Positions 6,704 through 49,477 of a DNA stretch of 55,129 nucleotides are shown here, one piece after another. Numbering within the stretch: position 1 is the stretch's first letter; the number at the start of each line of letters is the position of its first letter. This stretch comes from an uncultured Candidatus Saccharibacteria bacterium (GTDB lineage Bacteria > Patescibacteriota > Minisyncoccia > Phycocordibacterales > UBA9973), in contig CAYMIO010000001.1 of the NCBI GenBank assembly GCA_964390875.1, positions 49,875 to 105,003 of the forward strand, read 5' to 3'. The notes beneath the pieces are model-generated. The model was not told where the DNA came from. It ran no database searches and saw nothing but the letters and a program-made list of their open reading frames with translations. The translations under genes were made by a program, and so were the position numbers.

Positions 6704-6739
6704 GTCAGGATTCTATCATAGGCCGGCGATCGGGTCAGC

Positions 6740-7363: not shown

Positions 7364-7459
7364 GGTGCTCAGAGTATACCATCTTATGGAATAAGATGAG
7401 TCAGAGTCGGTTTCTTGATAGGTACAGCGAAGTGTTGCTTTAGGGTATATACTTACCAT

Positions 7460-10475: not shown

Positions 10476-10512
10476 AATCGGTATCTCTTTGTTGTTTGGT
10501 ATACTTATTCTC

Positions 10513-10899: not shown

Positions 10900-10906
10900 T
10901 CCACCC

Positions 10907-11164
10907 GTGTCACACTTCGTCTACATCCTTGAATGCGCCGACCTTACACTGTATGTGGGTGCAACGAACAATCTTGAAAAGCGGGTGCATCAGCACAACA
11001 CTTCGAAAGCTGGTGCGCATTATACGAAAATCCGTAGGCCTGTTGTTTTGAAATATTCAGAAACATTCGAGACTCTCACAGAGGCAAGAGCGAGGGAGGC
11101 CGAGCTCAAAAAGTGGACGAGAGAAAAAAAGATGCAACTTATTTCAAAAAATAACAGTAGATGA
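10907..11164 (+). CDS. GIY-YIG nuclease family protein (UPF0213-type, stand-alone)
   Basis: FVYILECADLTLYVGATNNLEKRVHQHN...ARAREAELKKW. GTG start. Confidence 0.85.
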   Translation: MSHFVYILECADLTLYVGATNNLEKRVHQHNTSKAGAHYTKIRRPVVLKYSETFETLTEARAREAELKKWTREKKMQLISKNNSR

Positions 11165-11235
11165 GTGGCGCTTAGGTATGTTTTCTTTTTTGGATTTTGT
11201 GTGGTATTCTGTAAAAAAAATTAAAATCATATCTC

Positions 11236-11454
11236 ATGAAACGTAAACTTATCGCCGAAGGCGTAACGGTTCCCAAGAAAGATGAACAAGGGAAGATTCA
11301 TTTTGTGCGCGTACCTCGGAGTTCTATAAAAACAATTGAAATACCTAGAGAGGTAGAGGTAAAAATCTATACAAATTATTTTATGGATAGAATCTACATG
11401 CAACTTGCTTCCGAGAACGATCGAAAGGCTATGAAGGATCAGTTCGTAGTTTAA
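11236..11454 (+). CDS. small hypothetical protein (72 aa)
   Basis: An ORF followed directly by a strong terminator. No motif recognised. Confidence 0.45.
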   Translation: MKRKLIAEGVTVPKKDEQGKIHFVRVPRSSIKTIEIPREVEVKIYTNYFMDRIYMQLASENDRKAMKDQFVV

Positions 11455-11460
11455 ATATAA

Positions 11461-11497
11461 AAAGCTGTTTATCGTAAGATAGGCAGCTTTTTTTTGT
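11461..11497 (+). terminator. rho-independent terminator
   Basis: AAAGCTG...CAGCTTTTTTTT hairpin with an inner TATC/GATA stem. Confidence 0.7.
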
Positions 11498-11546
11498 GTA
11501 GCATACTGGGGTATCACTTCAGTTTTTTGATTGGTATACTGTAAGT

Positions 11547-33076: not shown

Positions 33077-35614
33077 ATGTCATTCCTAGAAAACCTATTT
33101 GGCGATACGGGTAAAAAGGCTCTCAGTGAGGCCCGCGCCATCGTGAAAGATATCAATATATTGGAAGAAGAAGTGAAAGCGCTTGCTGACACGGATTTTC
33201 CTCTAAAGACAGCAGAACTCAAAGAACGTATTTTGAAGGGAGAAACACTCGATGCGGTTCTTCCGTATGCGTTTGCGCTTGTGCGTGAGGCGGCACGCCG
33301 AACGCTCGGACAGAGACACTACGATGTGCAGCTTATCGGAGGTATTGTTCTTCATAAAGGAAACATTGCAGAAATGCGCACTGGTGAAGGTAAGACTCTC
33401 GTCTCCACACTCCCTGCATATTTGAATGCACTTACAGGACGCGGAGTGCATGTGGTGACAGTCAACGACTACCTCGCACGCCGCGACGCCGTGTGGATGG
33501 GACAAGTGCATTCATTCCTCGGCCTTACTCTTGGTGTGTTGAATGGACAAAATACTTCATATCGATATGATCCACTTCACAAAGAAGTCGATACTGAGCG
33601 CGACCAGGTTGGTTCATACCGTATCGTGTACGAATTTTTGAAACCATGCACTCGTGCTGAAGCCTATGCTGCCGATATCACGTATGGAACAAACAGCGAA
33701 TTTGGTTTCGACTATCTTCGCGACAATTTGGCCACGTCTCTTGATCGAGTTGTTCAGCGTGGACATGCGTATGCTATCGTCGACGAAATCGACTCTATCC
33801 TCATCGATGAAGCGCGAACACCGCTCATCATTTCTTCACAGTCAGGAGATTCTGAAGATCTTTATACAAAGTTTGCAACCATTGCTCGTGGGCTTATCAA
33901 AGACGAAGACTATACGGTAGACGAAAAGCATCGTTCTATTAGTCTGACTGACTCAGGTATTACGAAAGCAGAAAGTCTTCTTGGGCTTGAGAATATTTAT
34001 ACAGAAAAGGGAATAAAGTACGTGCATCATCTTGAAACAGCGGTTCGTGCCCAAGCTATTTTTATTCGCGACAAAGATTACGTTGTGAATAATAATGAAG
34101 TGATCATCGTGGATCCTTTCACCGGCCGCATGCAGCCAGGACGTCGCTGGAGCGAAGGTTTGCACCAAGCTGTCGAAGCAAAAGAAGGCGCGAAGATTGA
34201 AAAAGAAACACGTGCTGTTGCATCTATCACATACCAGAACTTTTTCCGTTTTTATGAAAAGCTTGGCGGCATGACAGGAACGGCTGCAACGTCAAAAGAA
34301 GAATTCTATAAAGTGTACGGACTCGATGTTGTCGCTATCCCGACTCACCGTGAGATTGCGCGTATCGACCGTGCCGATTTAATCTTCCAAAGTGAAGCAG
34401 CTAAATACAAAGCTATCGCAGCAAAGACGAAAGAGCTCCAAGACAAAGGCCAGCCTGTTCTTATCGGTACCATCTCGATTGAAAAGAACGAACTTCTTTC
34501 CGCGCATCTCACTTCTGCTGGTGTTCGCCACACAGTGCTGAACGCGAAGAACCACGAGAAAGAAGGCGAGATCGTCGCCAACGCCGGAAAAAAGGGAAGT
34601 GTCACTGTTGCCACCAACATGGCCGGTCGCGGTGTCGACATTCGTCTCGGAGGAGCAAATGCTACTGCTGAAGAAGCTGAAGAAGTAAAATCTCTCGGTG
34701 GACTTTTTGTTATCGGTACTGAAAGACATGAAGCGCGTCGTATCGACAACCAACTTCGCGGACGTGCAGGTCGTCAGGGTGACCCAGGCGAAACACAGTT
34801 TTATGTTTCGATGGATGATGACCTCATGCGTATCTTCGGTTCTGACAATATAAAAAATATGATGAAGCGTCTTGGTATTCCTGAAGACCAGCCTATCGAA
34901 CACCGCATGATCTCAAAAGCACTCGAAACGGCGCAGACTCGTATCGAAGGATTCAATTTTGATGCGCGAAAATACACACTTGAATACGATGACGTCATGA
35001 ACCAGCAACGAAAAGCTATCTACGCCCGCCGCCGCGCGATGCTTGAAGCTGATCGTGAAAAAATAGAAACCTATCTCTCAGATATTCTTGAAGAACACGA
35101 AGATAAAAAAGCGGTTGTGGCTGAGAGACGCGCTGCACTCGGTGATGACTCTTTCTTTGAAGCGGTGCGACGGATCATCCTCCATGTTACCGATGCGCTT
35201 TGGGTAGAACATATTGAGACTATGGAATATTATCGTTCCTCAGTGAACCTTCGCGCCTACGGTCAGCGTGAACCTCTCGTGGAATACAAAAAAGAAGGAC
35301 TCCGTCTTTTTAAAGACATGGAACACGAAACAAAAGCACAGATCTTGAATCTCATCACAACCCTTTCTGCTGATGTGCATATTACCGCACACAAAGAAGA
35401 GTCTCATCCTGTTGAAGGTGTAACGAGCCACGAAAGTATTCCTGTATTTCGTCAGGAGTCAGAAAATGAAATGCATCCCGACAAACGTATGCATATTGAA
35501 GAAGTGAAGCGCGAAATCGCCGAAACAAAGGAATCTGAAGTGCCGAAAGTGGGCCGCAACGACCCGTGTCCATGTGGAAGTGGAAAAAAATATAAAAAAT
35601 GTCACGGAGCGTAG
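33077..35614 (+). CDS. secA: preprotein translocase ATPase SecA
   Basis: [37 protein letters not shown], and the C-terminal zinc motif [14 protein letters not shown]. An extended -10 (TGCTATAAT) sits at 33042-33050. Confidence 0.95.
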
Positions 35615-35695
35615 CAGACTTTCATTTTCTGTGGTGAAAGTTATCAACAAATCGTAAAAAACTTTTAAATATATGCTAAAATCATCTCGTACCAG

Positions 35696-38600
35696 ATGAT
35701 TTTTCCTCGACAAAAAATTGCGAGTCTTTTTTCTTTACACCTCCTTTTTCTGGTGATTCTTTTCAGTGTCTTTGGTGTGTTTACTCGCGACCTTGAAGCT
35801 GCGGCTGGTGTTCCGAAAATCATCAACTTCCAAGGACGACTGCTCGACTCGAGTGGAAACCTTCTCGGTGGTTCAGGGGGAACCAACTATTGTTATCGTT
35901 TTGCACTCTTCGATGATCCTGTTGTAGGACAAGGAACAAAGCTGTGGCCCGCAGGTACACCAACCACCAACACGATATCCACTCGGCTTGGTGTCTTCGA
36001 TGCATACATTGGTGTAGCAGATGCGCTCGACTACAATTTCCAAGATAATGATTCTGTATTCGTGAATGTGGAAGTCGCTGCACAGGTAGCGAACTCTTGT
36101 GTCGGTGTGAGTTTTGAAACACTTGGCCCTCGTCCTCGTGTCGTGTCATCGGCGTATGCTATCAACTCAGGAGCAGTCGGCGGATTCATTCCTTCTCAGT
36201 CTGCAACCAACAACGACATCCCAGTGCTCACATCCGGCGCCCTTATTCTCGGGCACAGTACGCCTGGCATCAGAGCAACAGGTTCCAATGCGCTCACATT
36301 TCAAAGTGGCGTCACTGGCGACATTCAATTTTTTGGTTCATCAAATAAAATAACTTCAAGTGGTGCGCTCACTATCGCCGGTACACTCACGGCAGGTTCA
36401 GGGTCGGAAGTACTCACTCTTGCGTCAGGAAAAATCGACGCCGATGCGCTGACTCTGATAGGTAGTGGAACAACGGGTTCTTCTTCGAGTCGTTCAGGTC
36501 TTCAAACGACCAGCGATGGACTTGGTCTTTTGCAAGGGTGTACCGACGGACAACTTCTCGAATGGACAGATGCTGGCGGATGGGCATGTGCCAATGACGA
36601 CACAGGTGGTGGCGGTTCGACGCTTCAGTCCGGATACGGCGCTGATGTTGATGGCAGTGATGTGACTATTTCTCTGACTTCAGCTGACGACTCTCTCATT
36701 TTCACAAATCCTGCTTCATCAGGTACCGACAGTGGTTTTCTTGCGCAGTTCAATCAAGCAAACACTACTGCTAATGTCACCGCACTCGATGTTGTGCAGC
36801 TCAGTAGTAACGCTGATGGTATTTCTCTTTTGAATGACAATACCCTCAACACAGGAACAGCGCTGGTGGTCAACCACTACGGTGCAGGTGTTGGCAATTT
36901 GGCAATGCGTATAAACGACGTAGTGGGTGACACAACACCACTTATCGTGGACGGTGACGGAAGACTTGGTATTGGTACGACGACCATCGAAGGAACAACA
37001 GAGCGATTGCTTCAAGTGGGTTCGCCGACACAAAGAGGTAACTCTACTACGTATGGTGAAGTTACCACTAAAGGCTTGACTGATATCACTGAACTCACCA
37101 ATATCCAAGATACCTTTTTGTACGACACCACCGCCGACAGTGACGGTGGTCGCTGGATCGACTGGGCAACCACCGACCAGCTTTCGTGGTATACCGAAAG
37201 TCTTGATGACAGTCCGAGTGACCCATGCAACATTACCACCGACGATCGTTGTTATTCAGCGAGTTTTCCTCGAAAGGCGCTCCTTGTTGTCACAACGGAC
37301 GCACTCTATATATATGATGCGACCAATAACGTGATGTGGATGAAGTTTACGCAGAACGCTGATGGATACGCGCTCGGTGTAGATACCAACAACGACCCTT
37401 CAAGTGTGACTGCACAAAACGGTGTGATCTACGTGGGTGCCAAAGGTACGGCTTCGGGTGGCTTGTATGCCTTCGATTTCGTGAATGACCGCATGTGGAA
37501 TTACAATGCCACAAACCGCGCTTCAGCAAACGTGGGAATAGGCGGTAGAAACAGTGCTGTCACATATGGAAGTGATGTGAATGCAAAACTTCAGCTTGAC
37601 CCAGTAGGTACCTCAGCTGAATGGATGAACGTGAACGATGTTTCTGCTACGGTGATCAACGGAAGTTTTACGGCTATTACTATCGGTGCTACTACCAATC
37701 TTTCTCCTCAAAACGGTATTACGTTTGTTGCTCTTGCTACCGACTCAGGTCTGACCCTCATTAACATCCCTGCTCAAAGACTCGTGCAATATTCGGATGT
37801 GACAGCCGACGACTATACCGCTGTGCATATCGATAGGACGGGATATCTTTATGGACTCAACACTACACAAGATCAGCTTGAACGTTGGGATAACGTCGAT
37901 ACCGACAAAGCATCTGAAGTGAACGGCGCGTTCAACGCAAAATGGGATGAAACGCAAGCAACTGGTCCGCAAATTGCGTCAGGTGTTTTCAATATATTAC
38001 CCAATGCACCTGACGCACTTGAAGTTGTTTCAAAAGGATCCGTTGCTGATAACGGTAGGTCAAACTTGATTTACGTCGGTCACAGTCTTGGTCTTGCTGA
38101 ACTTCACGACCACACTACACAGCTTTTTGGTCTTTCAAAACTTTTCAATACAACAAAACAAACGATGCTCATGAGTGGTCTCATCGACATGGCACTTATG
38201 ATGGATGATACGTCGGGTACACTCGCGCAAGATCAAGGTGTTGCAAATACCGATATGACAATTAAAGGGTCTCCTACGCTTGCGGTGAGTGGTGTACGTG
38301 GAAAAGCAATTCAATTTGATAATACGGATGATTACTTGTGTTCTGATGCCAATCAAGATGGAACATGCGATGTTGATACCGCGTTTAACATGAGCACCGT
38401 GGGTTGGACGCTCGGTATGTGGTTTAAACACTCCACCACAACTCCTAGTGCTCCACAAATCTTGTTTGAAAAGTGTGTGACTGCAGTACCTGCGCAAGCC
38501 GTGGGTTGTGTTGCTGCATATATGACAACGACTGGAACAATTGTCACTGCGATTGATGATGATGCCACGTGGACGAGAGGATCTTCATATGATCTTACAT

Positions 38601-41164
38601 CAACATCTTCAATAACCTATAACGACGATAAGTGGCACTATCTCGTTCTTTCCCGTACGAATGCAAATGATATGGATGCGTATCTTGATGGTAGTCCGCT
38701 CAACTTAAGTAATGCCACAGGTCTCACAACGACCGTGGATGGGAGTCAGATTGTAACCATAGGAGGTGGATGTAGTACAACAACGGGCGCCAATTGTGCT
38801 GCTGCAAACATAGGAAATGTATGGGATGGTGCTATCGACGATGTGACATTCCAAGTAGGAACAACCACACAAGCAACACTCACTCCAGCCCAAGTTCGTG
38901 CGTGGTATAACGATGCTCGTCCACTGGTAAGTAAGCGTGTGATCACTGTAGATAATGCCACTGCAGGAACATCAACAACAATTGAAGATACCGGTGAGTC
39001 GTGGATCCCCAATGAGTTTGCTGGACTGCATGTGACTATTACCGGCGGCACTGGTGCAGGTCAAACACGCCGTGTTATTTCTAATACCACAAATACTCTC
39101 ACTGTTTCTCCTGCGTGGTCTACGACTCCGGACACAACAAGTGATTTTGAAGTTGATCCTGAAGCGCTTTATGGTGCAAGTAATTCTGTCTACGCTATCG
39201 GTATCACTGCCGAAGCGCCGCTTGGTGAAGCACGCCAAATGTGTGTGGGTACGAATGATGGCTCTGATGGTGGTGGTGTTACGTGCTACAACCACCAAGC
39301 GGGTCCAAGCGTGATCGCTGAGATTTATCATAGCGACACTGAACAGACCGATGACTACGGTGTTGAGTGGACTGGTGCCGACTACGATGATATTCGCTCT
39401 ATTGACCTTTCTGGTCGTGCACTCATCATTGCGAGTGAGGCACACTTTTTGACTGAAACATCCGACGTGCGACTTGGGCAAGGTTTGGATTATCTTGCAA
39501 ACCAACTTTTCAATATTAGATCTGAAATACTCACCGACGGTATTGCGGTTACAGGTTCGCTCGGTTTTGAAGTGGGCTTCGTGGGAGGTGCCGACTTGGC
39601 TGAATATTACTATTCAAATACACCGCTGGTTCCAGGAGATGTGGTGGCGATAGAACCTGTTCAGCCCGCTGGTATCACGACATCAAAAACACCATATCAA
39701 GACAACCTCCTTGGTGTTGTATCTACGCAGCCAGGACTTATTCTTGGTCCTATCGCAGAAAATGCATACGCTATTGCTCTTGCGGGACGTATTCCGGTGA
39801 AGGTCACAACAGAAAATGGTCCAATACATGTAGGAGACCAGCTGACCTCATCGAGTCGGGAAGGGTTTGCGATGAAAGCCACCAAAGCTGGTGCAGTACT
39901 TGGTCGGGTGATCAACGAACCAAGTGGAATGGTTTCGTGTAGTGAACCGCTTCCACCTATTGAAGATGCGATAGGTAATGGTCCTGGTGTTGTGGGTATC
40001 CCCGATGAGCGAGGTGTTGTTGATATTATCAATACTGCGCTCGAAGAAAGAAATGTTGGCACACTCGAAAGTTCTCATTTGAAAACGCAAGAAGAGAGCG
40101 ACGAAGGTCCGTTGTGCGGATACGCGATGTTGTTTGTCGGTCTTGGAGAAACGCTTGGTGAAAATATTAGTTTGCTTGCAGAGCGACATGCGGAGCGCAT
40201 GGAAGCACTTCCTATCGTAGAAGGACTACTCGTGAGTGGTGTTGGGGATTCTATCGATGATGAACAAGAATCGATCATGGATTTCCTTCGTTCTGTCAAA
40301 GAAACTGCAGTAGAATCTTCTCTTTCATATGAAAGTATTTTTACCGATCGTATTGCCGCTGCAGTTGATATTCTGACGCCGTCACTCTATGCAGATGAAG
40401 TGATAACCGGAAAGATCCGCGTGCCAGTAGGGAAGGAGCTTGCATTCGATGGCCTCACGGTATTTGGTGGAGGTGCTCGATTCGCTGGTACGGTTCAGTT
40501 TGGTGCGCAGACAGAATTCTTGATGCCACCACTTTTCAACAAAGACACTGCTGGCTTTGCGATCATCAAAGAAGGAGATACTCGAGTGCGTGTGAAATTT
40601 GATGTGCCGTATGCGACAACTCCTGTTGTGAGCGCTTCGATGACATTTGAAGCGATAGATAATATCGACGCTATCGATCTTGCAGGATTGTTCGAAGAAC
40701 AATATCGATTTGTTGTATACAACAAAGATGTCGATGGTTTCACTATCGAGCTCAATAAACCCGCAACGCTCAACATTCGTTTTTCATGGGTTGCGCTTGG
40801 TGTGAAAGACGCAGCCGTGTTTGAAAGTGTGTTCGATGGGCTCATTATCGGTACACCGGAAACAGAAGAAGAGACACAAGGTGACGAACCCGCTGCTCAA
40901 ACTTCAGAAGAATCCGATCCACCACTTCCCGAAGAACTTGCCGAAGAATTTTTCATTGAAGTGATCGATGTGAACGACGCTGTCCCACCTGTTTCTATCA
41001 GCACAGAAGAGGGTAGTGTGAGCGAAGAAACAGTAGAACCTGATCCAGCAGAAGAAGAACCTCAAACTGTTTCTCAAGAAGAAGCGCCTGCTGATTCTTC
41101 AGATGAAAGTGAAGCAGAGCCTGCTTCTTCTTCATCAGAGCCGGTCGTTTCTGGGGAGTTTTAA
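35696..41164 (+). CDS. giant (1822 aa) surface protein: N-terminal signal/anchor, LamG-like domain, H-type-lectin-like domain, acidic tail
   Basis: The N-terminal helix [19 protein letters not shown] is followed by [16 protein letters not shown]. LamG_3-like region at about 38255-38910 ([13 protein letters not shown]...WTLGMWFK...[10 protein letters not shown]...LDGSPLN...[10 protein letters not shown]). H_lectin-like region at about 40575-40805 ([13 protein letters not shown]...DGFTIEL...FSWVALG). Glu/Pro/Ser-rich C-terminus. Confidence 0.85.
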
Positions 41165-41242
41165 AGAAATACACATGAGTGGCCGTTTCGGTATGCTATA
41201 CTAGCGGTTGTTGTTATTTATTATCTATAATGTACATATTGT

Positions 41243-41656
41243 ATGGTGTTATCTAGAAGTTTTGTATACAAATTGCTGCTTATCTTAGTGATACTTCTCG
41301 CGGGAACGTCTGTTTTTTTCTACAATAAATTTTCTAGCCTCAAAGCAAATCCCTCAAAAGCGGAAGAAGCTGAAGTCGAACGTCTTGTGGCGGTTATTGG
41401 TGAGCATATTGTGTTGCCAAAAGATGAAACTCCCACCGTGGCTACTGTGGCAGATCCTGATGCGCTCAAAGGCCAATCTTTCTTTGTTGATGCAAAGAAA
41501 GGAGACAAAGTTTTGATTTACACCAATGCAAAGAAGGCAATCCTCTATGATCCCACGGTAGACAAAATCATCACTGTGGCTCCACTGACTATCGGTGACT
41601 CACCGACCAATGCGGTAACACGAGAAGATATAGAAAAAGGAGAAGAAGAAAACTAA
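41243..41656 (+). CDS. small N-terminally anchored protein (137 aa)
   Basis: One TM helix (LLLILVILLAGTSVFFY) plus a ~100-aa extracytoplasmic domain. Sits 15 nt upstream of the next gene. Confidence 0.6.
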   Translation: MVLSRSFVYKLLLILVILLAGTSVFFYNKFSSLKANPSKAEEAEVERLVAVIGEHIVLPKDETPTVATVADPDALKGQSFFVDAKKGDKVLIYTNAKKAILYDPTVDKIITVAPLTIGDSPTNAVTREDIEKGEEEN

Positions 41657-41671
41657 TAGCGTCTGGAAAGT

Positions 41672-42421
41672 ATGAACAATCCAGTGATTGCTTTGAAATA
41701 CATATTCGCACTCACACTGTTCTTCGTGGTTTCTGGTGCTGTCTTGGCTGCTGACCTTACGAGTGGAAGTTTTATTATTCGCGATCCGGTACTTGGTACA
41801 GGAAGTGGATATAGTTCTTCGGCTTCGTTTAGTGTACAGGGAAGCGGTAATCTCAATACCCAAGGATATGGTTCTTCAGCAAGCTTTATCGGAGAATATG
41901 GATTTTTATATTACCAGGCTCCTGTCGTGAGCCAGAGTATAACCTTCGAACTTTCTGATAGCACGCTCGCCTTCGGCTCGCTCTCATCTTCATCACCACG
42001 CTTTGCCACAGGCACGAGTGGATCGGGCACCGACAGTGTAGCGCATACTATTGTTATTGAAACGACTGCGCCCAGTGGATACTCTCTTCGATACACAGGA
42101 CTTCCGTTTTCATCGGGAGCAAGTGTTATCGATGCAGCTACTATTGTGAATGATGAGGATGGAACATCGGGTGTTGAGCAGTTTGGCATCAGTGCTTCTG
42201 TTTCCGACGATGCTGACGTTGCGGTCGGGTACGACCACAACGCTACACCCGCGAATAGAGATTGGAAATTTGTCGCTAACACTCCTGTAACGATTGTTTC
42301 AGAAGATGGTCAGACAGCGGCAGAAACGATCAATCTTTATTATCTTGCAAATATCGCAGCAAGTACTCCTGCTGGACAGTACGCTACAGAAATTACATAT
42401 ACGGTTACAGGTAATTTTTAA
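41672..42421 (+). CDS. secreted subunit with a WxL-like C-terminal module (Tyr-for-Trp variant)
   Basis: Signal peptide (VLA-AD). The C-terminal ~160 aa align by eye to the next gene: SITF..FG.LS..AHT..V.T.A..GY.L.Y.G...GT.G.EQF.IS...GYD...DW.FV...YLANIAA.T.AG.Y...ITY.VTGNF-stop. Confidence 0.7.
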   Translation: MNNPVIALKYIFALTLFFVVSGAVLAADLTSGSFIIRDPVLGTGSGYSSSASFSVQGSGNLNTQGYGSSASFIGEYGFLYYQAPVVSQSITFELSDSTLAFGSLSSSSPRFATGTSGSGTDSVAHTIVIETTAPSGYSLRYTGLPFSSGASVIDAATIVNDEDGTSGVEQFGISASVSDDADVAVGYDHNATPANRDWKFVANTPVTIVSEDGQTAAETINLYYLANIAASTPAGQYATEITYTVTGNF

Positions 42422-42536
42422 CGATATAATAGAAAGATATCCACATAAATCAGCCTCACAAGAGCGCTTCGGCCACCTTTTTGTGATAAGATGTACTTTA
42501 TAAGACTATTATTTATTTATATATTGTTTCCAAATT

Positions 42537-43604
42537 ATGTTTAAAAAAATCGTGAGTGGTGCGCTTGTAATACTGTTTGTGTGTGTGGTTAGTGGTATCC
42601 CGCAGGTTCTTTTCGCTGCTTCACTCACAGCACTTTCAGATACGATGTCCGACCAAAATGCGAGCGCTGCATCAAGTCACACTATCCGATTTACTACACC
42701 AACTGGAGCATCAGACAACACTGACACTATCATCATCACATTTCCTTCGGACTTTAACTTCACATCAAAGACTATTGGCTCAGTGTCTTTCACTCACGGA
42801 TCAACCACTGGTGCTGAAACAACAGAGACACTCGCATCGAGTGCCACTGGTAGTGCATGGGGTGCTGCGTTCTCAGGTACACAAAACCGTGTACTCACGC
42901 TCACTGCTCCAACCGATGGTGTCGGTGCAGCATCACTTGCAGCAAGCGACAAGGTTATCATCACGTACGATTCAACCAACTCCCTAAACCCAAGCTCAAC
43001 AGGTAGCTTCACCATAGCTATTACTGGTTCGTTTGGAGATACTGGTAACATTGCGATTCCTATCGTAGCTGGTGGTGCTGGTGACGACAGTGTGGCTATT
43101 ACTGCTAACGTAGATCCTTCCATCACATTTACAAACGATGACGCTGCTATTGGTTTTGGAACACTGTCAGCTTCAGCCGCAACCTACGCTAATGCAGGAG
43201 CGACTGGCTCAAGTTCAGATACTACAGCACACACGATGACTGTAGGTACGAACGCAGCTGGTGGATACACCATTACATACTCGGGAGCAACACTTACATC
43301 GGGTGGAAATACTATCACTGCTATTAACGCTGGTATAACTGATGACGCAAACGGTACTCCAGGTAGTGAACAGTTTGCTATCAGTGGTGCTCTTACCGGA
43401 ACAGGTTCTATGGCTTCAGGATACGACAACTCAGGTACTGCTGACTGGCGTTTTGTTCCAAGTACAACAACAACACTTGCTTCACATACTGGTGTTGTTT
43501 CTTCAGACAGCATTGCTATGCACTATCTTGCGAATATCGCAGCAAACACTGAAGCTGGTTCGTACTCAAATACCATTACCTATATCGCAACCGGTAACTT
43601 CTAG
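42537..43604 (+). CDS. secreted subunit, paralog of the previous gene (same C-terminal module plus an extra N-terminal beta-rich domain)
   Basis: Signal peptide (LFA-AS). Ends ...HYLANIAANTEAGSYSNTITYIATGNF. Thr/Ser/Gly/Ala-rich. Confidence 0.7.
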   Translation: MFKKIVSGALVILFVCVVSGIPQVLFAASLTALSDTMSDQNASAASSHTIRFTTPTGASDNTDTIIITFPSDFNFTSKTIGSVSFTHGSTTGAETTETLASSATGSAWGAAFSGTQNRVLTLTAPTDGVGAASLAASDKVIITYDSTNSLNPSSTGSFTIAITGSFGDTGNIAIPIVAGGAGDDSVAITANVDPSITFTNDDAAIGFGTLSASAATYANAGATGSSSDTTAHTMTVGTNAAGGYTITYSGATLTSGGNTITAINAGITDDANGTPGSEQFAISGALTGTGSMASGYDNSGTADWRFVPSTTTTLASHTGVVSSDSIAMHYLANIAANTEAGSYSNTITYIATGNF

Positions 43605-43615
43605 CGAGACCCACA

Positions 43616-44635
43616 ATGCAAAAAGGATTGCTTTATTACATACAGCGCGCTGTCCTACTCTCACTCTTTTTTCTCGCTCTTCCGTTTGGAGCACACGCGC
43701 TGACGCTCACACCTGTACGCCATGAACTTCGCGGAGATCCCGGTGAGACTATTCGTGAGACGGTAACTCTCATCAACGAGAAGTCTACAGGCGAAACATT
43801 CTATACATCATTTGCAAATTTTGAAGCAGAAGGTGAGAGTGGTAGTCCTAGTTTTGTTGAACCAATAGAAGGTGTGGGAACATGGATCGTCACCAACTCT
43901 TCGGTTTATGTAGCTCCTAATAGTTCAAAAGAAGTTGAATTGTCTATTACGATTCCAAAGAGCGCAAATCCTGGAGGATATTTCGGCGCTGTCTTTTTTG
44001 GAACATCTCCTTCTTCTTCAGCTGGTGAAGTCGCTATCGGTTCCAAGATTGGTGTACTCGTACTTCTCACTGTTAATGGTGAAGTAAGTAAAGATGGAGG
44101 TGTCCTTGAATTTGCGACGAAAGATATGCAGAAATGGTACACAGCGCTCCCTGTCCCACTGTACTATCGTTTTCAAAATGCCGGAGGCGACCGTATAAAA
44201 CCAGAAGGTGAAATTCTTGTACGCAACCTTATCGGTTTAATCGCTGCTCGCATTCCTGCCAACCAAGTCCAGGGAAACATTCTCCCAAGTTCAACTCGAA
44301 GGTTTGAAGTGCTCTGGCAATCAAAACATGGAAGCTCTGAACCTCACGAAGGAGGATTGGGCTTTTTCCAAGCAGTGTCATACCAGTGGAACAATTTTGC
44401 GTTTGGAAGGTATGTGGCGCACCTTGATCTGACTCATTCAGGAAATGAGTTACACCACAAAGCAAAGTATTCGTTCTGGGTATTTCCATGGCAGCTCTTG
44501 ATCGTTGTTGGTGTGGGCCTACTCGTTTTCGTGACTCTTCTTAGAAAAGGTCTTGCGCGCTACAACGCGTGGATTATTAAGAAAGCACGAATCTCACTTG
44601 ATACCACTCATCAAAACAACAGCAAAGAAAAGTAA
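43616..44635 (+). CDS. CscA-like protein (DUF916/DUF3324-like, i.e. WxL-interacting-protein architecture) with a C-terminal TM anchor
   Basis: Signal peptide (AHA-LT). LTLTPVRHEL..GETIRETVTLINEKS, VAPNSSKEVELSITIPKSANPGGYFGAVFF, GVLVLLTVNGEV, ILPSSTRRFEV. The C-terminal helix LLIVVGVGLLVFVTLL is followed by a basic tail. Sits 11 nt after the previous gene. Confidence 0.65.
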   Translation: MQKGLLYYIQRAVLLSLFFLALPFGAHALTLTPVRHELRGDPGETIRETVTLINEKSTGETFYTSFANFEAEGESGSPSFVEPIEGVGTWIVTNSSVYVAPNSSKEVELSITIPKSANPGGYFGAVFFGTSPSSSAGEVAIGSKIGVLVLLTVNGEVSKDGGVLEFATKDMQKWYTALPVPLYYRFQNAGGDRIKPEGEILVRNLIGLIAARIPANQVQGNILPSSTRRFEVLWQSKHGSSEPHEGGLGFFQAVSYQWNNFAFGRYVAHLDLTHSGNELHHKAKYSFWVFPWQLLIVVGVGLLVFVTLLRKGLARYNAWIIKKARISLDTTHQNNSKEK

Positions 44636-45575
44636 ATCTGCGTGGACAGTATTCTTTTTCCATACAGGAGCTTTTCTTGTACTCGTGTCGCTATTTTGCG
44701 GACCTGTTTCTTCGCATGTGGTGAATGCGGCAGCTGAAAGTGTTTCTATTCAAGCCATCGTGTCTGGAGCTCCGGAAGAAGAACCATCTGGTGGGGGAGG
44801 TGGCGGAGGAAGTCCGTCTCCTTCGGAAGAAACAGAAGATGAGATTGTCGTTCCCCCATCTTCGGTGTTTTTTTCAGGAGTTGCGTATCCTGAAGCGTCA
44901 GTCTTCCTTCTCAAAAACGGCCAGCAGGCAGAAAAAACAATAGCGCGTACTGACGCTGCGTTTTCAATACTGTTACCCGATCTTACTCCAGGGTCATATA
45001 CCTTTTCGGTTGTTGCCGAAGATGCCAATGGGCGCCGTTCTACGCTGCGCACGTTTCCGATTCGCGTTTCAGAAAATGTGGCGACGACGATCTCTGATAT
45101 TTTGATCTCACCTACAGTGTATGTGAATCTTTCTTCTGTGGTCAAAGGAGAACCACTTGTTGTTTCAGGGTACGGAGCTCCGCTGGCATCTGTGGTACTC
45201 ACTCTGCGCTCCGCTGTTTCATCTTTTTTCTCTCTTCCCACTACCGTGAGTGGAGAATATACTACAACGCTTGATACCGCAGTTTTGCCGCTCGGAAGTT
45301 ACCAAGCATCAGCGCATACTCTTTTTGCTGATGAAAGTGAGAGTCCGGAAAGTGCACTTATATCTTTTTCTATAAATGACCAAGAACTTCCGTTTCCTGA
45401 AGAAACATACACACCTGCTGATATCAACTACGACATGCGAGTGAACCTTGTTGATTTTTCAATTCTCGCGTATTGGTATAACAAAGACGTTCCACCAGCA
45501 AAAGTCGATTTGAATGGCGATGGACGTGTCACGATTACTGATTTTAGTATGCTTGCGTATGCGTGGACAGGATAA
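44553..45575 (+). CDS. secreted protein with two Ig-like repeats and a C-terminal dockerin-like module
   Basis: Signal peptide (VNA-AAE) and a poly-Gly linker. The C-terminus DINYDMRVNLVDFSILAYWY...DLNGDGRVTITDFSMLAYAW forms the two dockerin Ca-binding segments. The start is uncertain (ATG 44553 or in-frame TTG 44598). Both overlap the upstream gene. Confidence 0.7.
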   Translation: MRATTRGLLRKHESHLIPLIKTTAKKSKSAWTVFFFHTGAFLVLVSLFCGPVSSHVVNAAAESVSIQAIVSGAPEEEPSGGGGGGGSPSPSEETEDEIVVPPSSVFFSGVAYPEASVFLLKNGQQAEKTIARTDAAFSILLPDLTPGSYTFSVVAEDANGRRSTLRTFPIRVSENVATTISDILISPTVYVNLSSVVKGEPLVVSGYGAPLASVVLTLRSAVSSFFSLPTTVSGEYTTTLDTAVLPLGSYQASAHTLFADESESPESALISFSINDQELPFPEETYTPADINYDMRVNLVDFSILAYWYNKDVPPAKVDLNGDGRVTITDFSMLAYAWTG

Positions 45576-46464
45576 AAAATGGTTTTTTGCTGTTAGTGTT
45601 GTGTGTGCTCTTGTATTGTCGCCAGGGTCTCTTTTTGCTGCGCGAGTCTATTTTGAATCAGGACGTCCCGCGCACACTTCTTCATCTGAACTGCGGTATG
45701 TGGATGTGATGCTCGATACTGAAGGTGTCCCTGTAAACGCAGTATCTCTTGAAGTTGAATTTGATGATGAGGCTCTTTCTTTTGTCTCTTCACAACACGA
45801 CGATAGTATAGTGACTTCGTGGTTTGTTGCACCACAAGTAAATGGTAATCACGTTGTTCTTTCGGGAATCATGGCGGGAGGTTTTGATGCAGTGATCGAT
45901 CCTGTCTCAAAAGAATTACTCCCTGGTCGTATTGCTCGTCTTATGTTTTCGTCGCAGAAGGAGGTGGAGACCGTACTTTCTTTTACTGAAGCATCGCTGG
46001 CCCTTCATGATGGCCAAGGCACACCAGAGATTCCTAAAACAGAATCAATCCGACTCTTAAGCGGAAGCGATGTTCCACCATCAGATACATTGCCAGTTGA
46101 TACTGATCCGCCAGAAGTATTTATTCCGATGGTTGGCAAGGACGCTGCACTTTTTGATGGAAAGTATTTTCTTGTGTTTGAAACCAAAGACCGCGGTTCA
46201 GGTGTTGCGTACTATGAAGTGAAAGAAGGTCGTGGTGTGTGGCAACGCGCAGTGAGCCCGTACGAAATTCAGGACCAGACTCTTCGCAAGCAGCTCTTTG
46301 TGAAGGCAGTGGATGTTGAGGGCAATGTTCTCACTGTTAAAACGTTTGAACGAGATTTGTACCTCACATGGGTTGCTATTGTAATAGGCGGCGGCGCTCT
46401 TTTAGGTATCGTGTTTCTTCGCGTATTGAAAAAACGCATGAATCCGACTATACTACATCAATGA
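45559..46464 (+). CDS. membrane-anchored cohesin-like protein 1
   Basis: Signal peptide. Cohesin-like segment VDVMLDTEGVPVNAVSLEVEFDDEALSFVSS...VVLSGIMAGG...ARLMFSS. C-terminal TM helix WVAIVIGGGALLGIVFL followed by RVLKKR. Overlaps the upstream stop by 17 nt. Confidence 0.65.
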   Translation: MRGQDKKWFFAVSVVCALVLSPGSLFAARVYFESGRPAHTSSSELRYVDVMLDTEGVPVNAVSLEVEFDDEALSFVSSQHDDSIVTSWFVAPQVNGNHVVLSGIMAGGFDAVIDPVSKELLPGRIARLMFSSQKEVETVLSFTEASLALHDGQGTPEIPKTESIRLLSGSDVPPSDTLPVDTDPPEVFIPMVGKDAALFDGKYFLVFETKDRGSGVAYYEVKEGRGVWQRAVSPYEIQDQTLRKQLFVKAVDVEGNVLTVKTFERDLYLTWVAIVIGGGALLGIVFLRVLKKRMNPTILHQ

Positions 46465-47468
46465 TACGATCGGTACGCTTTTTTCTGTCCACGCTCGCAG
46501 TGTGTATTGTTTTCATATGTATACCAGTACACGGAACGCTTTTTGCGGCTTCGTTTGGTTTTGCGCCCAACGCAACTGATATTTCTGTAGGGGAACAGTT
46601 CTCAGTGGAGGTGTACACTAACACAACCGGAATGTCCGTAAACGCCATTTCAGGAACCGTGAAATATATGCCGGGGATGTTTGATGTTGTTTCTGTTCGA
46701 AAGTCCGATGCGATCTCCTTTTGGGTTAAGGAGCCAAAAGCTGAAAACGGCTCTATTCTTTTTGAAGGCATCGCTCTTGATCCAGGTGTGTCAGGTCCGC
46801 GCGTTCCAGTACTTACTGTCATACTCAAAGCAAAACAAAGCGGTGTTTCTGAAATGAAAATCACCAATGCTTCTATTTTGAAAAATGACGGGCTGGGCAC
46901 AAACGTTTTAAACGGTCTTGCGTCTTTACAACTCAAAGTGCGCGCGAGTTCTGTTTCGGTTGGTGCACTATCGGCGTCTTCTAGTGTGGAAGCAAACTCG
47001 ACTCCACTGGCTTACGATACGTTTGCTCTTCCTGTTATCACCGACTATTCAGCCGTTGTTTCTTCTGGTGGACGTTTGTTTGTGAAAGGTAAAGGGGAAC
47101 CAAATGCCCTTACACTCATTCAATTTAAAAAACTATCACCGCCGACCTTTGGACAGCGAATGCTCAGTGTGATGGGTGATCGAGAATCTGCCACACTCTC
47201 TGACGTGTATGTTATCAACAGTGCTGACGGAAGTTTTGAGTATGTATCCAGTCGTCCTGTATCTCCTGGCTTGTATAGCGCTATTCCGTCGCTTGTGGGG
47301 AATGGTATTGAAAAGAAAACACCAGGTTTGGGTGCTCAGGTAAATGTGATTGCGAGCCGTAAAGATTTTTTCTTGGCACAAGTAGTGGATTGGGCAGTGA
47401 TGCTTATACCCGTCATGCTTCTTGCGGTGCTCACCGTTCTTGTCTATCGTAAAAAACAGGTACAGTAA
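46461..47468 (+). CDS. membrane-anchored cohesin-like protein 2
   Basis: Signal peptide. FGFAPNATDISVGEQFSVEVYTNTTGMSVNAISGTVKYMPGMFDVVSV...ILFEGIALDPGVSG...VLTVILKAKQSG is cohesin-like. C-terminal TM helix followed by YRKK. ATGA start/stop overlap with the upstream gene. Confidence 0.7.
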   Translation: MIRSVRFFLSTLAVCIVFICIPVHGTLFAASFGFAPNATDISVGEQFSVEVYTNTTGMSVNAISGTVKYMPGMFDVVSVRKSDAISFWVKEPKAENGSILFEGIALDPGVSGPRVPVLTVILKAKQSGVSEMKITNASILKNDGLGTNVLNGLASLQLKVRASSVSVGALSASSSVEANSTPLAYDTFALPVITDYSAVVSSGGRLFVKGKGEPNALTLIQFKKLSPPTFGQRMLSVMGDRESATLSDVYVINSADGSFEYVSSRPVSPGLYSAIPSLVGNGIEKKTPGLGAQVNVIASRKDFFLAQVVDWAVMLIPVMLLAVLTVLVYRKKQVQ

Positions 47469-47517
47469 TTCAGTTTTTTTATTCGTCAGTTCTTTGCTGT
47501 GTGATATACTACCAGGA

Positions 47518-48645
47518 ATGAATATGTTTCGTAGTCGACGATCGGCACTGTGCGGATATTTTCTTCTTTTGGTGTGCCTCCTTACATTGCCTGGATATAG
47601 TCGTGCAATGAAACAGGAAAGCATTTTGAGTCCTGATGAAGTGGCGTGGATGAACGCGCATGGAAATACCATCGTTGTGCAGCCGGGAGTCAACGTCCCT
47701 CCTTTTTCTTTCGTGCGAGAACACCAGAATAATAGTTTTCCTCAAGGATATGGTATCGACTTCATTGGCCGTGTTGCTGAAGCTCTTGACCTTAAGGTTG
47801 AGTACCGAGAAGCACAGACGCTCACCGACATGCTTGAAGGTGTAAAAGACGGTGAGCCTGTTGTTCTCGTCTCACTCGCAAAAACACCAGCACGTGAAGA
47901 GAGTTTTATTTTTACTGAGCCGTATGTTAGTTTGCCCGCTGTTTTTGTCGTTCGGTCTGATTCTCCTTTTCCTGAAAATAGAACGACTGTTAAAGATTTT
48001 AAAGGAAAAACAATTGCTGTTGCTCGGGACTCCTCACCTCATGAGTTTTTGAAAATAAACCACCCTGAGCTTACACTTGATCTCACGGTTGATGGTGAGG
48101 CTAGCTTAAAGAAAATGCTCCTTGGTGAGGTGGACGCTGCTGTACTGAATATTGCCTCGCTTTCGTACTTTATTTCAAATTCAGGGCTTTCTTCTATTCA
48201 TATTGCTGGTCCAGTAGGGTTTGATTCTGAGCTTGCCTTTGCTATTCCCAAAGATTCACCTGAGCTTGCTTCGATCATTCAAAAAGGAATGAATATGGTT
48301 ACTCAGTCTCAGCGTGAGTTTTTACGGGCAAAATGGATCAATTTCGAAGCACCAAGCGGTGTAGCCTATACGAGTTCAGCGCAGCCTCTTTGGGCAGATT
48401 ACGCTGTTCCGGCAGTCTTTGTGCTGGTACTTATCTTGATCGTAGTCGTGTCTACTCGAATGTTCATTCCACGTCCCGATTCTTTCCTTTCACACGTGAA
48501 AAAGGGTGTTACGCGAAAGCAAGAGGCACTGGATAAGCTCAAACAGCTCGAACAAGCCGAGGAATTACTCGAAGCGGAGCTTCGAGCGGTGAGGGAAGTG
48601 GAGAAAACCGTCGAAAAGAACCTTGGTGACCTTTCGTCTAACTAA
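47518..48645 (+). CDS. membrane-anchored solute-binding (SBP_bac_3-like) protein with a short cytoplasmic coiled coil
   Basis: Signal peptide, a family-3 SBP domain (PPFSF...GYGIDF...FTEPY...KGKTIAV...), one TM helix (YAVPAVFVLVLILIVVV) and a ~55-aa charged helical tail. An extended -10 (TGATATACT) lies 7 nt upstream of the ATG. Confidence 0.75.
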   Translation: MNMFRSRRSALCGYFLLLVCLLTLPGYSRAMKQESILSPDEVAWMNAHGNTIVVQPGVNVPPFSFVREHQNNSFPQGYGIDFIGRVAEALDLKVEYREAQTLTDMLEGVKDGEPVVLVSLAKTPAREESFIFTEPYVSLPAVFVVRSDSPFPENRTTVKDFKGKTIAVARDSSPHEFLKINHPELTLDLTVDGEASLKKMLLGEVDAAVLNIASLSYFISNSGLSSIHIAGPVGFDSELAFAIPKDSPELASIIQKGMNMVTQSQREFLRAKWINFEAPSGVAYTSSAQPLWADYAVPAVFVLVLILIVVVSTRMFIPRPDSFLSHVKKGVTRKQEALDKLKQLEQAEELLEAELRAVREVEKTVEKNLGDLSSN

Positions 48646-48685
48646 ATAGCACAATATTAATCTATATAAGTCAAGTCTCTATGGG

Positions 48686-48716
48686 AAAAATACCCTTACT
48701 TTATAAGGGTATTTTT
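48686..48716 (+). terminator. rho-independent terminator closing the surface locus
   Basis: AAAAATACCCTTA-cttta-TAAGGGTATTTTT. Confidence 0.75.
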
Positions 48717-48749
48717 GATTTGACACTAGTAAAAAGCATTGTATAACTA

Positions 48750-48778
48750 TTGACTTTTGAACCCCGTTGTGCTATTAT
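48750..48778 (+). promoter_or_regulatory. sigma70-like promoter (TTGACT-17 nt-TATTAT)
   Basis: TTGACT at 48750-48755 and TATTAT at 48773-48778. A ~85-nt leader follows, containing GNRA (CCG-GTAA-CGG) and UUCG (CTCGC-TTCG-GCGAG) hairpins. Confidence 0.5.
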
Positions 48779-48868
48779 ATGGGAAATATCCGGTAACGGG
48801 TATTTTCAGTTTCTCGCTTCGGCGAGGACAAACAGACCACGATGTTGGCAGAGCACAACTGCTACACT

Positions 48869-49477
48869 ATGCAAATAATCAAGCGTTTTCGCTCTCTACA
48901 GTCATTTGTTGTGTTTCCTATTTTAGCAACAAGCTTTACGTTCGGTCAGTTCGACCTTAGCGGAAAGATCCCCACTGTAGCAGTACTATCTACCTTCCAA
49001 AATGGGCACCTTATGGAGAATTCCGACGATAACCACGATCCGGAATTTGAATCTAAGGTCAAGCGTGTGGAGGCATACTTCGCCTCAAAGAACCTTCCAA
49101 TGGCTGATTACGCCGAAAAGCTCGTCGTAGAATCTGAAAAGAATGGACTTCCATGGAACCTTGTTGCTGCGATCTCGATGCGTGAGACTACCGGTGGTAA
49201 GTTCTCATGTCAGAGTGACCGTGATAATGCGTTTGGATGGGGTGGTTGTGGAGCGATTAAGTTCGACTCTGTTGACCACGGTATCGAAACGGTTGCTCGC
49301 AACCTTGGCGGTAACAACCCTAATACGGCTCATTATTACGAAGGTAAGGATACGTATGGAATCCTCCGTAAGTACAACTCTGTGATCCCGAACTATCCTA
49401 AAGAAGTTCTTGCGATCATGAAGTCTATTGAAAATCAGACCGTCACAGAAGCAGTTCTCGCACAAAACTCCCAGTAA
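48869..49477 (+). CDS. secreted glucosaminidase-like (GH73/LytD-type) peptidoglycan hydrolase
   Basis: Signal peptide. NGLPWNLVAAISMRETTGGKF...DNAFGWGG resembles the glucosaminidase catalytic region (conserved Glu, FG[IW]). A terminator overlaps the stop (about 49463-49495). Confidence 0.6.
   Translation: MQIIKRFRSLQSFVVFPILATSFTFGQFDLSGKIPTVAVLSTFQNGHLMENSDDNHDPEFESKVKRVEAYFASKNLPMADYAEKLVVESEKNGLPWNLVAAISMRETTGGKFSCQSDRDNAFGWGGCGAIKFDSVDHGIETVARNLGGNNPNTAHYYEGKDTYGILRKYNSVIPNYPKEVLAIMKSIENQTVTEAVLAQNSQ

Follow-up and report, generated by a model that had tools for sequence, protein, structure and literature searches.

Which surface structure is encoded by a run of exported-protein genes in a member of the Patescibacteria? 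These bacteria account for much of bacterial diversity, and the majority are thought to live attached to host cells; to our knowledge, the machinery of this attachment is barely known. The locus discussed here lies in a stretch of 55,129 nucleotides (nt) of contig CAYMIO010000001.1 (assembly GCA_964390875.1, an uncultured Candidatus Saccharibacteria bacterium), which is called the window throughout. Behind secA, it encodes a giant protein of 1822 amino acids (aa), a 137-aa protein, two paralogous subunits of 249 and 355 aa, a membrane-anchored protein of 339 aa, a dockerin protein, two further anchored proteins of 301 and 335 aa, and a protein with a solute-binding protein (SBP) domain. The initial annotation of the window regarded the ten genes as an undescribed assembly locus that combines WxL/Csc-like with cohesin-dockerin logic.

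Open reading frame (ORF), domain and motif calls were made on the window, and family-level counts use homologue sets of each product. We read the locus (35696-48721) as a Paceibacteria-type Pam pilus operon with a dockerin-cohesin anchor, and assign to this overall statement a probability of about 0.7. Its parts differ in strength. That the locus is a Pam-type operon for a pilus built by donor-strand exchange is highly probable, and the role of the dockerin protein as the cohesin-docked terminator of the pilus has an even chance of being correct. The description as undescribed holds in part. The core of pilins and anchored chaperone is the Pam pilus, known since 2026, and what is new is the dockerin-cohesin base and the link to the WxL-interacting protein (WxLIP); the Pam preprint makes no mention of dockerin, cohesin or WxL (bioRxiv 10.64898/2026.03.03.709456).

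Conservation of the operon core

The synteny sample comprises 80 species-level GTDB loci and two metagenome loci (82 in total, cited individually by L numbers), onto which the window proteins were mapped; the chaperone is present in 82 of 82 by construction of the sample. Downstream counts refer to the 68 related loci with at least 4.5 kb of sequence 3′ of the chaperone gene. The core, which consists of the pilin or pilins, the chaperone, the dockerin protein and the two cohesin proteins, is found in the same order and on the same strand in 56 of 68 Patescibacteria loci. Considered singly, the dockerin gene (66/68), the first cohesin gene (65/68) and the second (58/68) follow the chaperone gene in this order and on its strand, and a two-domain pilin gene is situated directly 5′ of it in 76 of 78 loci. 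The survey thus bears out two earlier claims, namely that the gene string is a real, non-random arrangement and that these modules are combined in one operon. The first search with the chaperone returned 647 relatives, the top 120 of which are ~45-54% identical and are labelled Nomurabacteria or Paceibacterota where named; the family amounts to 4,999 clusters at 50% identity (E ≤ 1e-10).

For other genes of the window, conservation is partial or lacking. Of the 82 loci, one has secA, 10 have the window-type giant, 16 the SBP gene and 19 the 137-aa gene. Two mutually exclusive sub-types of the operon are recognized. The first, observed in 20 of the 42 loci with enough upstream sequence, has a protein of 650-2650 aa that ends in a pilin module. 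In the second, that of the window, the giant is a separate tail-fibre-like protein, accompanied by a small PamT-like pilin, by the anchored 137-aa protein and, in most cases, by the SBP gene; no locus combines the 137-aa gene with a gene for a giant that has a pilin module.

The pilin subunits

The Pam pilus, an adhesive pilus of ultra-small bacteria of the candidate phyla radiation (CPR), was described in Ca. Mycosynbacter amalyticus by Troman et al. in a 2026 preprint (bioRxiv 10.64898/2026.03.03.709456). Its cryo-EM structure reveals two-domain pilins, PamA and PamB, in which the strand linking the two domains fills the open C-terminal Ig-like domain of the neighbour. The operon further encodes PapD/FimC-like chaperones with a C-terminal membrane helix (PamC/D), the tip pilin PamT, which consists of the domain only, and no usher. 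In PamR, an RbmA-like membrane anchor, an N-terminal strand is followed by two FnIII domains and, at the C-terminus, by a transmembrane helix. A “tail fibre-like protein” adjoins pam operons, and the system was found mainly in Saccharimonadia and Microgenomatia (10.64898/2026.03.03.709456).

Both paralogous subunits of the window pass the NCBIfam model NF058581, “Pam pilus system pilin subunit” (cut-off 55 bits), with 62.2 bits for the 249-aa and 61.0 bits for the 355-aa protein, and the model is matched by 65 of 85 members of the pilin family (best E 1e-36). The AlphaFold 2 (AF2) model of the 355-aa protein has a mean predicted local distance difference test (pLDDT) of 86.8 and is composed of a beta-sandwich (aa 31-177), a disordered linker (aa 181-195) and the C-terminal Pam domain (aa 196-355). 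The sole segment with pLDDT below 50, aa 185-188, falls within the linker. This architecture agrees with that of the cryo-EM-solved PamA and PamB. The 249-aa protein, which has the C-terminal domain only and no donor motif, is PamT-like in architecture and would be the acceptor subunit at the distal tip.

The WxL-like module that the initial annotation had assigned to the two subunits was not found. Pfam WxL is matched by 0 of 85 family members at E ≤ 0.5 and the dual W-x-L motif is present in 0 of 85; the tryptophan that was probably noticed, that of “DWRF” (DWRF/DWKF), is unconserved and present in only 19 of 85 pilins. Neither a PDB sequence search nor plasmid tblastn returned a WxL protein, and the top 50 Foldseek PDB matches of the full pilin model include no WxL chain. 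A WxL domain in the subunits is thus ruled out by Pfam, by the motif count over the 85 members, by the PDB sequence search and by plasmid tblastn. PDB sequence searches with the pilin and chaperone profiles gave no match at all, so that the Pam structures have yet to be released or are too remote for such a search.

Complete C-terminal Pam pilin modules are also carried by the giants of 650-2650 aa encoded by ORFs upstream of the pilin genes in L001, L003, L005, L010, L013-L015, L018, L020, L022, L025, L039, L043, L048, L056, L071, L077-L079 and others. This fusion is the FimH/PapG or “large WxL” design, in which a tip adhesin is joined to a pilin domain.

The membrane-anchored chaperone

The AF2 model of the 339-aa protein (pLDDT 84.8) comprises two Ig-like domains and a C-terminal transmembrane helix (aa 292-338). 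Its top Foldseek matches in the PDB are the Enterococcus faecium WxLIP 9i1y (E 9e-11) and 9i25_C, “bound to long WxL” (E 4e-10), followed by chaperones of chaperone-usher systems (E 1e-9 to 1e-6), namely CfaA (E 1.4e-9) and then CsuC, EcpB, CupB2 and Caf1M. At the family level, WxLIP_PGBD is matched by 35 of 75 chaperone homologues (best E 3.9e-6), and the window copy reaches 16.3 bits against a cut-off of 27.3, with no DUF3324 match in Pfam. tblastn with the chaperone retrieved annotated DUF916 proteins on actinobacterial plasmids (E 2e-4), and hhalign of the chaperone family against a Clavibacter DUF916 protein gave a probability of 98.9% and E 3e-17 over both domains and the transmembrane helix. 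Since the fold, Pfam-family, tblastn and hhalign results agree, the WxLIP/DUF916 (CscA)-like identity proposed earlier for this protein stands, with the precision that it is a remote WxLIP homologue and not a Pfam-level member.

A conserved loop of the chaperone, which has the family consensus GQVSIGAKTG, has the heptad V-x-I-x-A-x-[TIV] in common with the pilin linker. The loop is of low confidence in the model (pLDDT below 50 at aa 136-139). A hairpin of WxLIP is predicted by AlphaFold to insert into the WxL sandwich (PMC10599100), and the chaperone loop is probably its equivalent, a strand that would fill the pilin groove. No NCBIfam model of a Pam chaperone or of PamR matched the chaperone or cohesin families.

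The actinobacterial matches, L083 (Clavibacter phaseoli plasmid pCCh, 6098-7912) and L084 (Cellulosimicrobium protaetiae pCPRO01, 6061-7903), encode a DUF916 protein homologous to the chaperone. Upstream of it is a secreted protein of ~210 aa ending “..AGDYSSTITLSLFE”, and LamG-like and GH43 giants adjoin. The ~210-aa protein has no significant similarity to Pam pilins; a short C-terminal likeness between pilin “EAGSYSNTITY..” and actinobacterial “DAGDYSSTITL..” (“..AG.Y..T.T..”) is not significant. Plasmid tblastn with the DUF916 protein, aimed at Firmicute WxL clusters, returned only actinobacterial DUF916 loci. A third branch of this kind of system may be represented by these plasmid loci.

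The dockerin protein and its donor-like strand

The dockerin named in the initial annotation is genuine: the window protein scores 29.7 bits with Dockerin_1 (cut-off 22.9), 66 of 70 family members match this model, and the family profile matches cellulosomal dockerins in the PDB (3.6e-7). The module contains the only dockerin-like motif pair in the window. The protein is ordered as signal peptide, donor-like strand, poly-Gly linker, two Ig-like (Big_6) domains and type-I dockerin; Big_6 is found in 58 of 70 family members, and the mature N-terminus reads AAESVSIQAIVSG... The start of the gene is most likely the TTG at 44598 (MIPLIKTTAKKSKSAWTVFFF...) rather than that at 44553, because a normal signal peptide results.

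The motif V.[VI][TS]A.V, which describes the pilin linker strand, is carried by 80 of the 112 two-domain pilins; among the ORFs of the dockerin family it is present in 52 of 81. It is found in 0 of 29 giant-pilin fusions, in 0 of 24 PamT-like ORFs (the 249-aa protein included) and in no member of the chaperone, cohesin and SBP families. In the remaining ORFs it appears 44 times over 701,480 aa, a background of 6e-5 per residue, so that ~1.5 occurrences are expected by chance in the dockerin family and the observed number is ~35-fold higher. In this family the motif always follows directly after the signal peptide and precedes the poly-Gly linker, and its A and last V are invariant in 70 of 70 members. 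Together with the chaperone loop, this means that the pilin, chaperone and dockerin families share one putative groove-filling strand, as donor-strand complementation and exchange predict.

A homologue in L024 (4976-6355, + strand, 460 aa) consists of a pilin N-domain (hidden Markov model (HMM) E 5e-42), the linker “DNDQVTISATV”, Gly6, two Big_6 domains and a dockerin. Since this protein still has the complete pilin N-domain, the dockerin family appears to derive from a pilin by loss of the acceptor domain and gain of a dockerin, with the donor strand retained, and the L024 chimera looks like an evolutionary intermediate from pilin to dockerin adaptor. No other candidate for a terminator or anchor, that is, a strand-bearing protein without a groove, is encoded in the operon. 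L052 has a 638-aa chaperone ORF (9959-11869) and no separate dockerin gene, which may reflect a chaperone-dockerin fusion or a frameshift. The essential dockerin protein SEML1_0315 of Southlakia was considered as a saccharibacterial counterpart and rejected, as its gene is located outside any pilus-like operon.

The cohesin-type proteins

The 301-aa protein comprises a signal peptide, a cohesin-type domain, an OmpL47-type beta domain and a transmembrane helix (aa 267-291), and the 335-aa protein a signal peptide, a cohesin-type domain, an Ig-like domain and a transmembrane helix (aa 303-331). Cohesin is matched by 9 of 67 members of the 301-aa family (best E 5e-7), 61 of which have the OmpL47-type barrel, and by 25 of 61 members of the 335-aa family (best E 1e-9), 15 of which match Big_13. 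The L001 homologue of the 335-aa protein has a precomputed PF00963 match, the 335-aa family has weak PDB matches to Ruminococcus flavefaciens cohesins, and the two families align with each other in hhalign at a probability of 100% (E 7e-50). The two proteins, each anchored by its C-terminus, are thus paralogues and, as had been suggested from the sequence, probably of cohesin type, and they are the likely membrane receptors for the dockerin.

Proposed assembly of the pilus

We propose that the fibre is built by donor-strand exchange and without an usher. All parts would be exported by the Sec system, as their signal peptides suggest. The membrane-anchored chaperone would cap the open groove of newly exported pilins through its V-x-I-x-A-x-T strand, and the 355-aa pilin would then polymerise by inserting its linker strand SVAITANV into the C-domain groove of the subunit ahead, by homology with the Pam pilins. 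Subunits with a groove and no donor strand would stand at the distal end. In the window this place would be taken by the 249-aa PamT-like pilin, and in about half of the related loci by the adhesin of 650-2650 aa fused to a pilin module. In the sub-type of the window, the partner that binds the host is probably the 1822-aa LamG/lectin, tail-fibre-like protein.

Because the groove-only subunit is distal in the polarity of the Pam pilus, a protein with a strand only could be accommodated only at the proximal end. The dockerin protein would therefore be proximal and act as a PapH-like terminator; PapH ends the growth of P pili. With its donor strand alone, the dockerin protein would plug the groove of the last pilin, whereupon growth would stop, and its dockerin would hold the fibre on the two membrane-anchored paralogues by way of their cohesin domains. 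Dockerin and cohesin proteins would thus divide among two or three pieces the task that is proposed for the single protein PamR in Mycosynbacter and that PapH carries out in P pili.

Weighing of the proposal and its alternatives

Several observations weigh against this proposal. The pilus is predicted here from its genes, and everything beyond domain identity is deduced. Against the PamT equivalog model NF058579 (cut-off 240 bits), the 249-aa protein gives a full-length alignment with a score of only 48 bits, and it is not an equivalog. The likeness of the chaperone to PamC/D, and any likeness to PamR, is by the description in the preprint and not by alignment, and Foldseek of the full pilin against the PDB returns generic two-Ig adhesins (SdrG, ClfA, integrin) with poor TM-scores. 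The 55-kb window contains no P-loop signature of the F1 alpha/beta subunits of ATP synthase, unlike the reported pam neighbourhoods, and the flanking ORFs covered by the scan are unrelated. The cohesin copies of the window are below the Pfam thresholds (12.5 bits, E 0.17, for one and no match for the other), so the cohesin assignment rests on their families. The dockerin strand of the window reads VSIQAIV, with Q where most family members have S or T, and covariation of the dockerin strand with the pilin linker of the same genome is weak (4.46 versus 4.29 ± 0.09 identities, a level reached by 63 of 2000 shuffles). Finally, the proposal leaves the presence of two cohesin paralogues and the attachment of the 1822-aa protein without explanation.

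The weakness of the covariation would also be expected if two independent systems adjoin each other, a Pam-type pilus and a separate, membrane-anchored cohesin-dockerin module for display, whose Ig-repeat/dockerin protein binds host glycans or another ligand. Dockerin and cohesin modules are known outside cellulosomes in many lineages, which counts for such a module. The preprint on the Pam pilus, moreover, proposes another anchor, PamR, with dockerin unmentioned, and the saccharibacterium Southlakia encodes an essential dockerin-domain protein on its own, apart from any pilus genes (PMC10633639). Separate systems would not account for the overlap of the dockerin gene with the 3′ end of the chaperone gene in the window and its place after the chaperone in all but two of the 68 loci, nor for the fact that the mature dockerin protein starts with the pilin donor motif, far above chance, and that the A and V of this motif never vary. 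The fusion of a pilin N-domain and linker to the dockerin part in L024 and the lack of another candidate terminator or anchor in the operon likewise argue against them. We consider two separate systems rather improbable.

The structural proximity of the 339-aa protein to solved WxLIP and its homology with DUF916 proteins raise another alternative: a non-filamentous WxL/Csc-type complex on peptidoglycan, in which a WxLIP-like anchor and a cellulosome-like cohesin-dockerin scaffold display binding proteins. The dockerin is real and the cohesins probably so, and the cluster follows the grammar of WxL clusters, with a small domain-only subunit, a large protein with that domain at its C-terminus and an anchored two-Ig protein (PMC10599100, PMC9772566). 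This complex is nevertheless unlikely, since the subunits have no WxL motif or Pfam WxL match in any of the 85 members and pass the Pam pilin model, of whose family members cryo-EM has demonstrated donor-strand-exchange filaments. The conserved donor linker of the two-domain pilins would be unneeded in a complex that does not polymerise, and an LPXTG-bearing CscD-like protein, enzymes and a multi-cohesin scaffoldin are missing from the operon. The cellulosome-like scaffold logic of the initial annotation accordingly gives way to a fibre built by donor-strand exchange.

That unrelated genes for exported proteins, without a common function, follow secA by chance would fit the fact that most related loci lack secA, the giant, the 137-aa gene or the SBP gene, each taken singly. 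This alternative is scarcely credible in view of the short or overlapping junctions, the strand motif shared by three gene families and a five-gene core whose order and strand are kept across 80 species-level genomes, so that for the core it is already refuted by synteny.

Comparison with known systems

The locus resembles the Pam pilus in the C-terminal pilin domain, which scores above the cut-off, in the two-domain pilin with its linker strand, in the PamT-like subunit, in the PapD-like chaperone with a C-terminal helix, in the lack of an usher, in signal peptides throughout and in the adjoining tail-fibre-like giant. It differs in that its homologues are labelled Nomurabacteria or Paceibacterota, and in having one chaperone where Pam has two. 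L075 encodes two chaperone paralogues (3611-4669 and 5921-6955), as M. amalyticus has PamC and PamD. The mature pilins of the window, both of which end in “..TGNF”, are without cysteine; for PamA and PamB of M. amalyticus, in contrast, two or three disulfide pairs are reported. A single RbmA-like PamR is also absent here: the strand is located on the dockerin protein and the transmembrane helices on the cohesin proteins.

For the WxL/Csc clusters of Firmicutes (Siezen 2006; Hassan & Williamson PMC9772566, PMC10599100; PDB 9i1y, 9i25), the likeness lies in WxLIP (DUF916, DUF3324 and a transmembrane helix), the best structural match of the 339-aa protein, in the cluster grammar, and in the flexible hairpin of the anchored protein, which is predicted to complete the beta-sandwich of the subunit. 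In contrast to WxL proteins, which are described as bound to peptidoglycan and not as filaments, the subunits here have neither the dual W-x-L motif nor Pfam WxL similarity. The WxL clusters contain no dockerin or cohesin, and no operon product of the window has an LPXTG-like motif, so that a CscD-type protein is lacking.

The two-Ig fold of the chaperone and the logic of donor-strand complementation and exchange are common to the locus and to chaperone-usher pili (Pap/Fim, CFA/I class 5 and archaic Csu), as are a groove-only tip subunit or adhesin and a last subunit that, like PapH, would end growth and anchor the fibre. Unlike in these pili, there is no outer membrane, the chaperone is anchored in the membrane, and the donor strand is a linker between domains rather than an N-terminal extension; no usher family is matched by the operon products in Pfam or NCBIfam. 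The proposed terminator differs from PapH in having no pilin fold and in being tethered through a dockerin. As to sortase-built pili, LPXTG is absent from the products and no sortase was found, the only TLxTC matches being on antisense frames.

With cellulosomal and non-cellulosomal cohesin-dockerin pairs, the locus shares a type-I dockerin with two Ca-loop repeats and, probably, cohesin-type beta-sandwich domains on cell-anchored proteins encoded by adjoining genes. It differs in the absence of carbohydrate-active enzymes, in anchoring by C-terminal transmembrane helices and in a dockerin carrier that bears a pilin donor strand. Unlike a cellulosome, the window has one dockerin, one cohesin-type domain per protein and no multi-cohesin scaffoldin. 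A literature search found no report of a cohesin-dockerin pair in a pilus context of the CPR or as a joint at a pilus base.

Layout of the locus and neighbouring genes

The features are collected in Table 1. ORF and strand calls confirm ten genes on the + strand, and the junctions reported earlier are all correct: in the order of the genes from the 137-aa protein onwards, a 15-nt gap, an 11-nt gap, the overlap of chaperone and dockerin genes, a 17-nt overlap, an ATGA overlap and a 49-nt gap. To these we add three longer gaps: 81 nt separate secA from the giant gene, 78 nt the giant gene from the 137-aa gene, and 115 nt the 249-aa from the 355-aa gene. The last of these (42422-42536) contains two overlapping promoter-like sites, 42483-42512 and 42497-42525, which may be an internal promoter that raises expression of the major pilin. 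The terminator noted downstream of the last gene is real, being a hairpin with a T-run, and a promoter-like site (48750-48778) lies 3′ of it, upstream of the next gene. All nine products after SecA have the N-terminal hydrophobic segment attributed to them, four of them (the 339-aa, 301-aa, 335-aa and SBP proteins) have an additional C-terminal membrane helix, and Pfam and NCBIfam searches agree that none has an enzymatic domain.

Table 1. Position, strand and basis of assignment of the features of the locus (window coordinates)
Feature	Position	Strand	Basis
secA	33077-35614	+	ORF call
1822-aa secreted giant	35696-41164	+	ORF call; signal peptide read from sequence
137-aa protein, N-terminal signal anchor	41243-41656	+	hydrophobic segment, residues 1-28
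249-aa small pilin, Pam C-terminal domain only	41672-42421	+	NF058581
355-aa two-domain pilin, probable major subunit	42537-43604	+	NF058581, AF2 model
Putative donor strand SVAITANV, pilin linker aa 185-192	43089-43112	+	motif V.[VI][TS]A.V
339-aa membrane-anchored chaperone (WxLIP/PapD-like, PamC/D-like)	43616-44635	+	AF2, Foldseek, hhalign
Chaperone loop/strand GEVAIGSKIG, aa 137-146, putative groove-filling strand	44024-44053	+	shared heptad
Dockerin protein, ~325 aa	44598-45575 (longest ORF from TTG 44553)	+	Dockerin_1, Big_6
Donor-like strand SVSIQAIV, mature N-terminus of dockerin protein	44739-44762	+	motif comparison
Dockerin module, two Ca-loop repeats DINYDMRVNLVDF and DLNGDGRVTITDF	45417-45572	+	Pfam, motif scan
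301-aa cohesin-type protein	45514/45559-46464	+	family Cohesin matches
335-aa cohesin-type paralogue	46368/46461-47468	+	family Cohesin matches
SBP-domain protein, C-terminal membrane helix	47422/47518-48645	+	SBP_bac_3
Terminator-like hairpin and T-run, closes operon	48684-48721	+	dG -21.8 kcal/mol, z -3.2

The description of the giant as LamG/lectin- and tail-fibre-like holds at the family level. The window copy has weak Pfam matches (Laminin_G_2, 15 bits; H_lectin, 13.6 bits), and the family of eight members matches Laminin_G_3 (2e-11), H_lectin (5e-4) and Peptidase_S74 (0.008). Its homologues lie upstream or downstream of the operon. The pilin HMM gives no match to the giant, which has neither a pilin module nor a donor-strand motif, and it is a candidate adhesin associated with the operon. 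The 137-aa protein has no family match in Pfam or NCBIfam. The SBP domain of the last gene is genuine (SBP_bac_3, 67.5 bits); this gene occurs together with the 137-aa gene in 13 of the loci that contain it, and is an accessory gene restricted to the sub-type with the 137-aa gene. secA, which had been taken for the leader of the operon, is upstream of it in only one locus of the sample; it is thus rejected as a member of the system and is a chance neighbour.

After the terminator, 48842-49477 (+) encodes an exported-looking protein of 211 aa with a weak glucosaminidase match (PF01832, 22.9 bits, below the cut-off). Only four of the 82 loci (L043, L048, L056 and L061) have a homologue 3′ of the second cohesin gene, and the protein may be a helper in wall remodelling or unrelated. 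Large proteins with surface domains flank the region, of 710 aa with DUF11 (28286-30418, - strand, 22.7 bits) and of 987 aa with DUF642 (51321-54284, + strand, 33 bits), and the neighbourhood is therefore rich in probable envelope proteins.

Significance

The Pam pilus is not confined to Saccharimonadia and Microgenomatia, as a tightly conserved version is spread across genomes labelled Nomurabacteria or Paceibacteria. Two ideas go beyond the Pam preprint. The first is a single-membrane fibre that would be stopped and tethered by an adaptor with a donor strand only and a cohesin-dockerin joint; if true, this would be the first use of such a joint as a pilus anchor. The second is that the WxL/DUF916 clusters of lactobacilli, enterococci and Listeria may use the same principle of chaperone and strand complementation. 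More tentatively, and with somewhat less than an even chance of being right, the Pam, Firmicute WxL/Csc and actinobacterial DUF916 loci might form one ancient class of usher-less, single-membrane surface fibres around a WxLIP/PapD-like chaperone, in which WxL proteins would be pilin-like rather than mere peptidoglycan binders and the Paceibacteria would have evolved a modular dockerin-cohesin base.

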